Assembly (NCBI GenBank): GCA_030599585.1 | Contig: JAUVNS010000004.1 | Location: forward strand, 192,001 to 256,000 | Length of the DNA: 64,000 bases | Origin: Promethearchaeota archaeon | GTDB taxonomy: Archaea; Asgardarchaeota; Lokiarchaeia; Sigyniarchaeales; SOKP01 | Reading direction: 5' to 3' | Shown: piece after piece, positions 8,637 through 60,694 of the stretch | Position numbering within the stretch: the stretch's first letter is position 1 | Layout: each line of letters begins with the position of its first letter | Made by a program: the position numbers and the translations under genes | The notes under the pieces: generated by a model | Told to the model about the DNA's origin: nothing | Databases searched by the model: none | The model's input: the letters and a program-made list of their open reading frames with translations, nothing else

Positions 8637-8816
8637 GTATTATTTTAATAAAATAAGTTTAGAAGTGATATAATATCTTCTGTAAGGTTTAATGAGTTTA
8701 AAGAGTTATTGATTACTATTATTGACGCTATTGTCAAAGATTTTCCAAATAAGTAAACAAATGGGAAATAATACCCGCAAAATTTATTAGGGTACACTTA
8801 TTCTATTCTTATAATA

Positions 8817-8897
8817 ATGAATTTTTCGCGGCATAATACTGATTCATGGGTTGGCTGTAATAAGAAGGCCATTATTCCCTTAGTAACAGTATTATAA
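8817..8897 (+). CDS. Candidate leader peptide 1 (26 aa, MNFSRHNTDSWVGCNKKAIIPLVTVL)
   Basis: ATG ~30 nt after TATA-like TTTATTA (8783); Ile/Leu/Val-rich 3' end; stop abuts a 13-bp hairpin; architecture repeated at 9448. Confidence 0.55.
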   Translation: MNFSRHNTDSWVGCNKKAIIPLVTVL

Positions 8898-8952
8898 AGA
8901 GAATAAATCCTTTTTTCTCTCTTTTTCTTTTAATTCTTTGGATTTATTCTCT
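8898..8952 (+). promoter_or_regulatory. Stem-loop with U/C-rich loop directly after leader peptide 1 (putative attenuator/terminator)
   Basis: Perfect inverted repeat AGAGAATAAATCC (8898-8910) / GGATTTATTCTCT (8940-8952) around a 29-nt almost all-pyrimidine loop. Confidence 0.65.
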
Positions 8953-9045
8953 GCGTATGAAGTCTATTAATTTTTAAGAAAAAGTGGGATAAGGGCTTAA
9001 TTCTTACCGTAAATTCTAAAAAAAAGAATGGAGGTGAAAAAAGAA

Positions 9046-9222
9046 TTGGCAGGCAAAATAGGTCCTGAATCAATATTGGAGTATTATCAAGATTGGAATT
9101 CAGATCTGGCCCCTATCATGATGTCATTTGATCTCTCAGATGCCTATCCGGGTCAAATTGAAAGCGAGGACCAAGAAAAAATGGCTTATCTGAGAAAAAA
9201 ATATCAAAAAATATCAAAATAA
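9046..9222 (+). CDS. Small acidic protein (58 aa), related to 9681..9860
   Basis: GGAGGTGA SD then TTG at 9046 (in frame with track ORF 9028); DLSDAYPGQIESED motif; U-tract after stop. Confidence 0.75.
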   Translation: MAGKIGPESILEYYQDWNSDLAPIMMSFDLSDAYPGQIESEDQEKMAYLRKKYQKISK

Positions 9223-9416
9223 GCTCTAATTTTTTTCTATTTCTTTTTAACTATTATATAACGGTTGTTAAGCTTGAAATTTCGAAGATCCTAGATTTCT
9301 ACAATTTTCAAGTTAATCAGTTTGATTTATACTCAGTTTTAAATAAGGCGAAAAACCATAGTATAAAATTCATTTATTTGTATGATTTATTTATAATTGG
9401 GATAAAAAGTGAAACA

Positions 9417-9430
9417 TTTAAATAGCCTCA
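9417..9430 (+). promoter_or_regulatory. TATA box with downstream GCCTCA element
   Basis: GAAAC-A-TTTAAATAGCCTCA ~24-30 nt before ATG 9448; 13/14 identical to 60944-60957 (-). Confidence 0.55.
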
Positions 9431-9447
9431 TCTTTTTATTTATTCTT

Positions 9448-9540
9448 ATGATCTTAAATAATGCTACTAAATTTTCATTTGTAAAAGCTATAAGCCTTTT
9501 ATTAGGTGTGGCAGTAGTAGTATTATTATTATTATTATAA
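9448..9540 (+). CDS. Candidate leader peptide 2 (30 aa, MILNNATKFSFVKAISLLLGVAVVVLLLLL)
   Basis: ATG at leaderless distance from TATA; ends GTA GTA GTA TTA TTA TTA TTA TTA TAA; stop abuts hairpin. Confidence 0.62.
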   Translation: MILNNATKFSFVKAISLLLGVAVVVLLLLL

Positions 9541-9597
9541 ATGAGAGCCGATCCCTTTCGATCTTCTTTTTAATTTTTCTTGGATTTGCTCTCTCAT
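9541..9597 (+). promoter_or_regulatory. Stem-loop with U/C-rich loop directly after leader peptide 2
   Basis: GAGAGCcgATCC (9543-9554) / GGATttGCTCTC (9582-9593); same GAGA..ATCC / GGAT..TCTC frame as 8898-8952. Confidence 0.6.
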
Positions 9598-9680
9598 CAA
9601 AGAATTTAAATATAATTAAATCGAGATCATAACGGATTCCGGCACCTCAGGAAAAGTAAATAAAAATTGGAGGTGAAAAA

Positions 9681-9860
9681 ATGGAAAAAGAAGTTCTTGA
9701 CGAAATTGAAAGTCAAATTGCCTTAGAAAACAGTATAATTCAAATAAAGGGAGAAAACAAACACGCAAATAAAAATATCTTTTGGAAATACCTAGATTAT
9801 TCAAACTGGGTTCCAGGAGAAATTGAAATTGAAGAAGAAATTAAGAAAGACTATATTTGA
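9681..9860 (+). CDS. Small acidic protein (59 aa, MEKEVLDEIESQ...DYSNWVPGEIEIEEEIKKDYI)
   Basis: GGAGGTGAAAAA-ATG; one codon below the ORF-track cutoff; shares DxSxxxPG[QE]IExE with 9046 ORF. Confidence 0.75.
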   Translation: MEKEVLDEIESQIALENSIIQIKGENKHANKNIFWKYLDYSNWVPGEIEIEEEIKKDYI

Positions 9861-59452: not shown

Positions 59453-60694
59453 TTATGATCTATAATCACCATTAATTCGTACATATTCGTAGCTTAAATC
59501 ACAGCCCCATGCGGTTGCTTCACCAGTACCCTCCTTCAAAAGTAATTCAACTGTAATTTCATTTTCTTTCAAAATTTTTAATGCTAATTCTTCATCAAAT
59601 TGTAGAGGTGTTCCTTCTTGCATGAGCATAATCGAATGAGCACCATTATGAAAATTGATTGAAACTCCTGTAGGATTAAAATTTGCTCCAGAATATCCCA
59701 TGGCTGCTAGAATTCTACCCCAATTAGCATCTTCTCCAAAAAAAGCTGTTTTTACTAAATTTGAAGTAATAACTGATTTGCTCAAGAGTCTAGCATCTTT
59801 TTTTGATGCGGCACCTGAAACTTTTACCTCAATAAATTTCTTAGCACCTTCTCCATCTTTTACAATTTCTTGGGCTAAAAAAAGATTAACTAAATGAAGA
59901 GCTTTCTTAAATAAATAATATTCCTCATTTTCTTCCTTAATTTCTGTATTTCCCCCACATCCATTAGCTAATAGAAGCACTAAGTCATTTGTACTTGTAT
60001 CACCATCTACAGAGATCATATTATATGAGTCATCGACACTTTTTTTCAGAGCTTTATTTAATAACTCTCTTGAAATGTTGATATCCGTAGTAATGAAGGA
60101 AAGCATAGTTGCCATATTGGGATGAATCATTCCAGAACCTTTAGCCATACCTCCAATTCTGACTTTCTTATCGTCGATAGAAAACTCAACTGAAATTTGT
60201 TTTGGATAAGTATCAGTGGTCATAATTGCTTGGGCAGCCAAAAATGCGTCTGAAGTTGTATTTCCCAATTTTTCGTATGTATTATTAATTCCTGCAACTA
60301 TAGTATCAATTGGGAGCGGAACTCCAATTATTCCAGTAGATGCTACCAGAACCTGATTTTTATCTACCCCCAAACAAAATGCTAACTGATTTGCTATTGT
60401 TTCTGTATGTTTAGCCCCAACTTCCCCTGTACAAGCATTTGCATTTCCACTATTAATAACAATTGCTTTTACTCCATTTGGATTTTGAATAAGGTTCTGA
60501 TTCCATAAAATTGAGGACGCTTTAACTACATTCGTCGTAAAAACGCCAACTGCCTTAGCCGGAACTTCACTAAATATCAAAGCTAAGTCTTTTTTGCGCT
60601 CTTTAATTCCAATATGGCTACCAGTAGCACGATATCCCTTTGGACTTGTAATACTTCCACTTAATTTCTTTATACCTGTGTTGTTTATTTCCAT
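59453..60694 (-). CDS. argJ: Ornithine acetyltransferase / glutamate N-acetyltransferase
   Basis: NSGNANACTG, KGSGMIHPNMATML autoproteolysis site, DGDTSTND, DGEGA. Confidence 0.97.
   Translation of the reverse strand: MEINNTGIKKLSGSITSPKGYRATGSHIGIKERKKDLALIFSEVPAKAVGVFTTNVVKASSILWNQNLIQNPNGVKAIVINSGNANACTGEVGAKHTETIANQLAFCLGVDKNQVLVASTGIIGVPLPIDTIVAGINNTYEKLGNTTSDAFLAAQAIMTTDTYPKQISVEFSIDDKKVRIGGMAKGSGMIHPNMATMLSFITTDINISRELLNKALKKSVDDSYNMISVDGDTSTNDLVLLLANGCGGNTEIKEENEEYYLFKKALHLVNLFLAQEIVKDGEGAKKFIEVKVSGAASKKDARLLSKSVITSNLVKTAFFGEDANWGRILAAMGYSGANFNPTGVSINFHNGAHSIMLMQEGTPLQFDEELALKILKENEITVELLLKEGTGEATAWGCDLSYEYVRINGDYRS

Follow-up and report, generated by a model that had tools for sequence, protein, structure and literature searches.

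Enterobacterial leader-peptide attenuators include ilvL of ilvGMEDA, ivbL of ilvBN, and leuL. Bacterial leader control can also be factor-dependent, as at mgtL/mgtA and tnaC, where Rho takes part. The general mechanism of leader-peptide transcription attenuation has been summarised elsewhere (10.1101/834739), and the same work describes the mycobacterial poly-Cys attenuators, a 'ribulon' of leaderless sORFs at which a stalled ribosome blocks an SD-hiding helix. In archaea, aCPSF1 terminates transcription at U-tracts (PMC8716108). In the structure of FttA, a U-rich segment trails the RNA 3' end by 30-36 nt; the factor has a preference for U-rich RNA, and a coupled ribosome has been hypothesised to exclude it (PMC11616081).

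The original prediction for the locus studied here knew of no described leader-peptide attenuator in Asgard archaea. Our literature search, with most subscription papers outside its reach, found no archaeal case at all. The literature searched held no report of uORF-gated aCPSF1 termination, and the archaeal Ribo-seq papers in it mentioned only candidate uORFs. Here we analyse two tandem units in a 64,000-nucleotide stretch of a Lokiarchaeia genome (the window). Judged from comparative sequence evidence, each unit would be, with a probability of roughly 0.7, an attenuator that acts in cis, is read by the ribosome, reports the supply of charged Leu/Val/Ile-tRNA and turns its small protein ON when these amino acids are scarce. 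It would probably act through a U-tract and aCPSF1, without a bacterial terminator hairpin.

Results

Layout of the two units

The units lie on the forward strand, flanked by a GH4 glycosidase gene (divergent) and an LL-diaminopimelate aminotransferase-like gene (convergent). They had been described as a tandem cassette of TATA box, uORF at leaderless distance, stem with U-rich loop, SD and small ORF, and all of these parts are in place in both units. In unit 1, the TATA box (8783-8790) stands 34 nt before the ATG of uORF1 (34-36 nt in most orthologues), and uORF1 (8817-8897) has 26 codons with an end that reads Ile-Ile-Pro...Val-Leu. Inside uORF1, positions 8832-8841 pair with 8887-8896 in a hairpin that we call P1. 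Downstream follow arm A (8898-8910), which can take either B or C as its partner, a U/C-rich loop (8911-8939), arm B (8940-8952), which forms a perfect 13 bp stem with A, and arm C (8976-9004), which complements the U-loop plus A to give an alternative helix (duplex z about -6). The U/C-rich loop, single-stranded in A:B and paired in A+U:C, is a candidate termination/aCPSF1 tract. The SD of p1 (9030-9037), present in 35/35 orthologues, precedes the small protein ORF itself (p1, 9046-9222, 58 aa, TTG start).

Unit 2 repeats this order. Its TATA box (9417-9424) lies 31 nt before the uORF2 ATG, a distance kept in 10/10 orthologues, and uORF2 (9448-9540) has 30 codons with a Val/Leu run at its 3' end and its own P1 (9457-9469 pairing with 9515-9527). 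Arm A (9543-9554) pairs with arm B (9582-9593) across a U-rich loop (9555-9581), and arm C (9616-9648) ends 3' in CACCUC, which doubles as an anti-SD. The SD of p2 (9669-9676) is followed by the p2 ORF (9681-9860, 59 aa), a paralogue of p1. The whole module measures about 230 nt; counted from the uORF stop, the U core occupies +22 to +36, arm B follows at about +45 and arm C at +75 to +85. The distance from TATA to ATG is 31-36 nt in most module members, which suggests that the uORFs are translated in a near-leaderless manner.

Just 5' of the first TATA box is a TGGG-N-CCC(A) inverted repeat (8762-8776, forward strand) that is kept in orthologues and is a possible transcription-factor site. 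The box is common to the divergent GH4 promoter region, and in some clades direct TGGG repeats take the place of the inverted repeat. Assembled RNA contigs of a relative (X3, a hydrothermal-vent metatranscriptome, share 0.10) cover 9446-9566 and 9537-9754, although such contigs cannot show starts, strand or level, and the contig edge at 9446 is a weak hint only of the 5' end of a uORF2 transcript. Two further runs, X1 and X2, are probably DNA rather than RNA.

The small proteins p1 and p2

Clear homologues of p1 occur in 35 of 41 same-genus genomes and, elsewhere in the family, in about nine genomes from other genera, without exception at this locus, and p2 homologues were found in nine same-genus genomes. 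The paralogy of the two proteins is evident from profile comparison (hhalign probability 89%, E 2.4e-6) and from a shared motif, D-x-S-x3-P-G-E/Q-I-E. Metagenome contigs contain fused two-repeat p1/p2 forms of 105-114 aa; those read carry the same leader, and the fused forms appear to sit at the same locus, with a GH4 neighbour named for two of three. Of 41 loci, 15 have TTG as the p1 start at SD spacing, 16 have ACG and 8 have ATG. In 16 p1 orthologues (among L050-L067) an in-frame ACG follows a strong SD by 6-7 nt, with ATG there in one, and this ACG is predicted to be a conserved non-AUG start.

Searches of Pfam, NCBIfam and the ESM Atlas returned no match for the p1/p2 family or fold, and Foldseek returned nothing for a low-confidence p1/p2 model (pTM 0.33). 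A profile search of 1.84 billion representatives recovered only the p1/p2 family itself and one spurious ankyrin protein. Our guess, a doubtful one, is that a shortage of branched-chain amino acids induces p1 and p2 as short-motif inhibitors or adaptors.

Frame, peptide and codons of the uORFs

The original prediction hung on conservation of the uORF frames, and the frames are conserved. Wherever a same-genus locus has a full leader (35/35), uORF1 keeps its ATG and an open frame, and its gap events are multiples of three in 6/6 cases, against 4/18 downstream (Fisher p=0.0016). Variants within uORF1 number 10 synonymous and 50 non-synonymous, and the middle of the peptide drifts freely. Since the middle drifts while indels stay in frame, selection seems to act on the frame and end of uORF1 and not on its peptide. 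uORF2 is open in 10/10 orthologues, with a Val/Leu tract of varying length.

Two statements about the ends of the uORFs need revision. The N-termini had been called unrelated; they are related, since both uORFs build the 5' arm of P1 from [HN]-N-[TA]-T codons, codons 5-9 pairing with the last codons. The shared ending is present here as described, but its TAA stop is incidental, as relatives mostly use TGA in copy 1 and TAG in copy 2. In several lineages (L051, L065, L069, L127) the stop is shifted into arm A, and it is never far from A.

The two uORFs differ in the strength of their composition. Orthologues of uORF2 have Leu, Ile or Val at a median of 8/8 last codons. The last ten codons of uORF1 hold on average 1.4 Leu, 2.1 Val and 1.7 Ile (about 5 in total), and in genera g7 and g11 a different frame runs through its 3' end. 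As a sensor, copy 1 appears weakened or broad. Val and Leu codons in both focal uORFs are almost all GTA and TTA, with length variation of the form (GTA)n(TTA)n, and because these codons double as a P1 arm, the argument for a sensor is weaker when made from the focal uORFs alone. Read in either of the other two frames, this stretch is poor in Leu/Ile/Val or closed. In most leader classes the cognate codons adjoin the stop, with frequencies of 0.8-1.0 at positions -1 and -2.

Two mutually exclusive helices

Compared with shuffled sequences, the leader windows have folding z values of -3.3 (unit 1) and -2.7 (unit 2). A strict stem pattern matches only these two sites in the 4.85 Mb genome, and the leaders are conserved at 40 (unit 1) and 10 (unit 2) orthologous loci. 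The pairing of uORF codons 5-9 with the last codons in P1 has median energies of -13 to -18 kcal/mol across all classes, against -6 to -8 for the null, and for uORF1 the median is -15 against -6 kcal/mol. The A:B helix begins at the uORF stop and encloses a U/C-rich loop of 26-31 nt. Double-sided changes occur in 10/13 of its pairs, the observed pairing was reached by 0/500 shuffles, and slid controls scored lower.

Arm C pairs with A plus the U-loop, which excludes A:B. Among 41 non-redundant leaders, A+U:C has a pairing energy of -24.3 kcal/mol with the leader's own C and -16.0 kcal/mol in cross pairings. When centred, the advantage of self over cross is -8.1 kcal/mol (permutation sd 0.6), and the own C ranked first in 20/41 leaders; an upstream control segment gave only -0.7. 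The advantage also holds within classes (p<=0.0002 in three of four). Related leaders are not independent, and this and the other p-values given here therefore overstate significance. Both A:B and A+U:C thus covary, covariation being a point on which the original prediction could have failed. Its two-element model was right about the stem and the U-loop, but it missed the downstream arm C, with which the switch becomes a two-state one. In copy 2 of L008 and L009, the inner half of arm B is lost to an 11-nt deletion and arm C is retained, which makes these two natural switch mutants.

A search for hairpin-plus-U-tract terminators gave 0 terminator-like sites in the leaders, where the U-tract sits inside the A:B loop. 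An Rfam search of the leaders gave no credible match, none coming near the gathering score. A candidate fifth helix, between the 3' arm of the uORF and the segment after B, proved weak and confined to certain clades (median z -1.3 and +0.6), and was set aside.

Distribution of the module

We built a covariance model, R1, on the A-U-B-C module and searched it in 60 same-family and 40 more distant genomes. It matched in 54/60 same-family genomes, with four matches in this genome, and in none of the 40 genomes outside the family. A genome-wide search upstream of other genes had been proposed as a check, and a de novo scan found A-U-B-C before leuS, which encodes leucyl-tRNA synthetase, and before a gene for a Fer4-FrhB-TrmB-HTH fusion protein (G000:C20:393149-394582, minus strand; also L077:8150-9583), a possible redox-sensing regulator. 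The leuS leader, with its terminal Leu run, is present in 28/29 informative loci, and it includes Leu codons that lie outside P1. The FrhB-TrmB gene has Ile/Val uORFs with the module in at least 10 genomes.

In other genera the module, with Val/Leu uORFs, also stands at this GH4-dapL locus, before small proteins that resemble p2. In one genome it precedes an acyl-CoA dehydrogenase/ETF pair (Val run), and in one (G048, L205) a leuS that, judged by eye, looks bacterial-type. A second, similar synthetase in this genome (C11:94398-97193) has no module leader. All R1 matches have a Leu/Ile/Val-rich uORF ending at arm A except L193, where our script found no ATG-started uORF. A Val/Leu leader at L210:2300-2500, upstream of a fused small protein, has by eye no ATG; it starts directly behind the stop codon of a gene that has been inserted upstream.

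Codon identity and the downstream pathway

The codons at the ends of the uORFs follow the gene downstream. The last ten codons hold on average 6.7 Leu at leuS, 6.9 Leu at leuA, 6.9 Ile at cimA, 5.0 Ile plus 2.0 Val in the FrhB-TrmB uORFs, and 4.7 Val plus 4.5 Leu in the p2 uORFs of copy 2. A check of codon identity in relatives had been suggested, and there the uORF codons match the downstream pathway at leuA, cimA and leuS, with synonymous Leu codons mixed in the leuA and leuS uORFs. This match across leuS, leuA and cimA is the strongest argument for reading the codons as amino-acid sensors.

Two of these cases are leaders outside the R1 family. A Leu-run uORF and hairpin lie upstream of leuA-leuC-leuD in about 24/30 loci, a second family included (G000:C24:120100-120282, plus strand; also L078, L081-L110), and the leuA uORF was the top match of an unbiased scan of 3697 uORFs (p=1.7e-9). 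Upstream of cimA, the citramalate synthase gene, an Ile-run uORF and a pyrimidine-loop hairpin are found in about 10/13 loci (G000:C40:257668-259317, minus strand; also L079, L141-L152). Four same-genus genomes have an Arg-tailed uORF upstream of argJ, a candidate arginine leader; in the window it lies at 60904-60806 on the minus strand, with argJ at 60694, an Arg-rich tail with rare CGG codons, and a TTG start that is ATG in three relatives. Elsewhere in this genome, an Ile-rich 24-codon uORF and then a hairpin precede an ileS-like gene (G000:C28:118560-118769, plus strand), and a Val/Ile-rich uORF precedes a gene whose N-terminus is, by eye, MeaB-like (G000:C22:170030-170259, plus strand; L080). 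No cognate uORF was found at valS, ilvD or the four ilvB-like genes of this genome. Query TIGR00465 gave no ilvC match in this assembly, which is 100% complete and has ilvD, leuACD and cimA; a non-orthologous reductase in its place is possible.

Discussion

Several lines of evidence support reading the leaders as leader-peptide attenuators, as originally proposed: the frames are kept, the exclusive helices covary, leuS reuses the module, and the codons match the pathway, with the qualification that in the focal pair the Val/Leu codons are partly forced by P1. Against the attenuator stands the fact that p1 and p2, downstream of the focal leaders, are not amino-acid genes. The mechanism that we propose would run as follows. 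The transcript would start at the uORF, and P1 would pace RNA polymerase and ribosome. With plentiful amino acids, the ribosome would finish and leave, A would pair with B, and the U-tract would be exposed; the uncoupled polymerase would then be released, or the RNA cut at the tract by aCPSF1/FttA, which this genome encodes, giving OFF. At hungry codons, the ribosome would dwell on the last codons, cover A and block A:B, so that transcription could reach C. C would then lock the RNA in the U-hidden form, in copy 2 also freeing the SD, giving ON. That starvation means ON would follow, by established logic, from the presence of the same module before leuS. About 50 nt separate the U core from the start of arm C, and with the U segment 30-36 nt behind the 3' end the arm would be made too late to protect the U-tract when FttA acts; C more likely locks read-through RNA than blocks a co-transcriptional cut at the loop.

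The same sensor could also run with the opposite polarity, a variant within this explanation that we consider a serious contender at clearly less than even odds. Here a free arm A would mean ON: A:B would first shield B from FttA threading, and A+U:C would then take over. A ribosome at the stop would cover or unwind A and give OFF, a step likened to the bacterial antiterminator that is destroyed at the leader stop, and starved ribosomes would stall earlier and leave A free. The FttA geometry fits this order, as B falls within the cleavage window once the U core has reached -30 to -36. So does the Ile run of the FrhB-TrmB leaders, which peaks upstream at codons -6 to -9, and both helices could be conserved without conflict, with the stop always within a few nt of A. 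Equilibrium folding in which the ribosome footprint was masked could not tell one polarity from the other. We lean slightly towards A:B as OFF, because leuS, leuA and cimA leaders retain cognate codons at positions -1 to -3 even where these are unpaired, and a stall there would cover A.

Other readings give up more of the proposal. Control could be post-transcriptional only, by SD sequestration or mRNA stability and with no premature termination, as in the mycobacterial poly-Cys attenuators. The p1 start codons are weak, C comes too late to block co-transcriptional FttA action, and the anti-SD at the 3' end of C in copy 2 has z < -1.5 in 9/10 orthologues, all of which would suit such control. 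Yet copy 1, leuS and FrhB-TrmB leaders show no anti-SD above the level of shuffles, and an SD is present in just 3/31 leuS leaders, while all three kinds of leader keep the U-loop and C, and we think this reading improbable. We rate as equally improbable that the switch is thrown by a protein or another ligand or reports on general translation capacity, the Val/Leu codons being a by-product of P1 and of trinucleotide slippage. The GTA/TTA bias, the (GTA)n(TTA)n length variation, the weak composition of uORF1 and its frame-shifted ends in g7 and g11 would all be expected from it, but it leaves unexplained the pathway-matched codons across leuS, leuA, cimA and FrhB-TrmB with their synonymous mixing, the presence in leuS leaders of Leu codons outside P1, and the other frames, which are Leu/Ile/Val-poor or closed. 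Very unlikely, finally, is the alternative raised in the original prediction, that the uORFs encode hydrophobic peptides, either type I toxin-like or membrane peptides, and that each downstream ORF is an independent gene with a promoter of its own. The hydrophobic tail of uORF2 (about 17 residues) invites it, as do genera g5, g9 and g10, where p1 has its own promoter and no leader. However, a toxin of a type I toxin-antitoxin system is a conserved hydrophobic peptide paired with an antisense RNA, and the peptide of uORF1 is not conserved, is not hydrophobic enough and has no membrane-length segment; the same leader precedes leuS, and arm C connects the leader with the SD region. The internal promoter proposed for it (TTTAAATA, a TATA-like site at about 9604) is present in only 4/10 orthologues.

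On the attenuator reading, we suggest more tentatively, and at somewhat less than even odds, that the uORF-plus-RNA module gates aCPSF1/CPSF73-type cleavage-termination at a U-tract, and that it makes up a portable, ribosome-read amino-acid regulon in Lokiarchaeia comprising leuS, an FeS/F420-linked TrmB regulator and new small effectors of branched-chain amino-acid starvation. If this is true, the module would be functional evidence that transcription-translation coupling is used in regulation in the archaeal lineage closest to eukaryotes, and a natural substrate for testing the exclusion of FttA by the ribosome (the hypothesis of PMC11616081). It would be a leader-peptide attenuation built on archaeal/eukaryote-type termination machinery, linking bacterial attenuation with eukaryotic uORF control, and the new small-protein family and the Fer4-FrhB-TrmB protein would be likely branched-chain amino-acid starvation genes.

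How does the module compare with known systems? Like the enterobacterial attenuators, it has a short uORF, whose codons at leuS are cognate to the pathway, a hairpin inside the uORF, and exclusive downstream helices. Unlike them, it has an archaeal TATA box, a uORF predicted to be near-leaderless and a codon run adjoining the stop. It has no GC hairpin and U-tract terminator, the U-tract lying instead in a 27-29 nt loop that is hidden by a distal arm; it has no Rfam match, and its focal targets are small proteins that match no known family. The module works like a leader-peptide attenuator and, as it has neither an intrinsic terminator nor an Rfam match, falls outside the classical bacterial family. 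T-box riboswitches are likewise a poor comparison, with no Rfam match for the module and a dependence of the module on an open frame. Nascent-peptide arrest leaders (TnaC, SecM, fungal AAP) need a conserved peptide, which uORF1 does not have.

The Rho-dependent leaders mgtL/mgtA and tnaC, together with archaeal aCPSF1/FttA termination, share with the module the principle that the ribosome and alternative helices set access to a single-stranded factor-loading tract, although the timing of arm C does not fit a co-transcriptional protection from FttA. In the same clade, the Lokiarchaeia leuA leader also has a Leu-run uORF directly followed by a hairpin; it differs in having a single hairpin with a pyrimidine 5' arm, is non-homologous, and is unmatched by R1. 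The closest design is that of the mycobacterial leaderless poly-Cys attenuators, which have leaderless uORFs with a cognate run, as predicted for the module, act at several loci as a regulon, and resemble copy 2 in its anti-SD. They belong to another domain and respond to another amino acid. Copy 1 and leuS are without SD sequestration, and in the archaeal case one homologous RNA module is reused. What appears to be new here, on the sequence comparisons, is this covarying two-state module, reused at leuS, at the FrhB-TrmB gene and at the small-protein locus.
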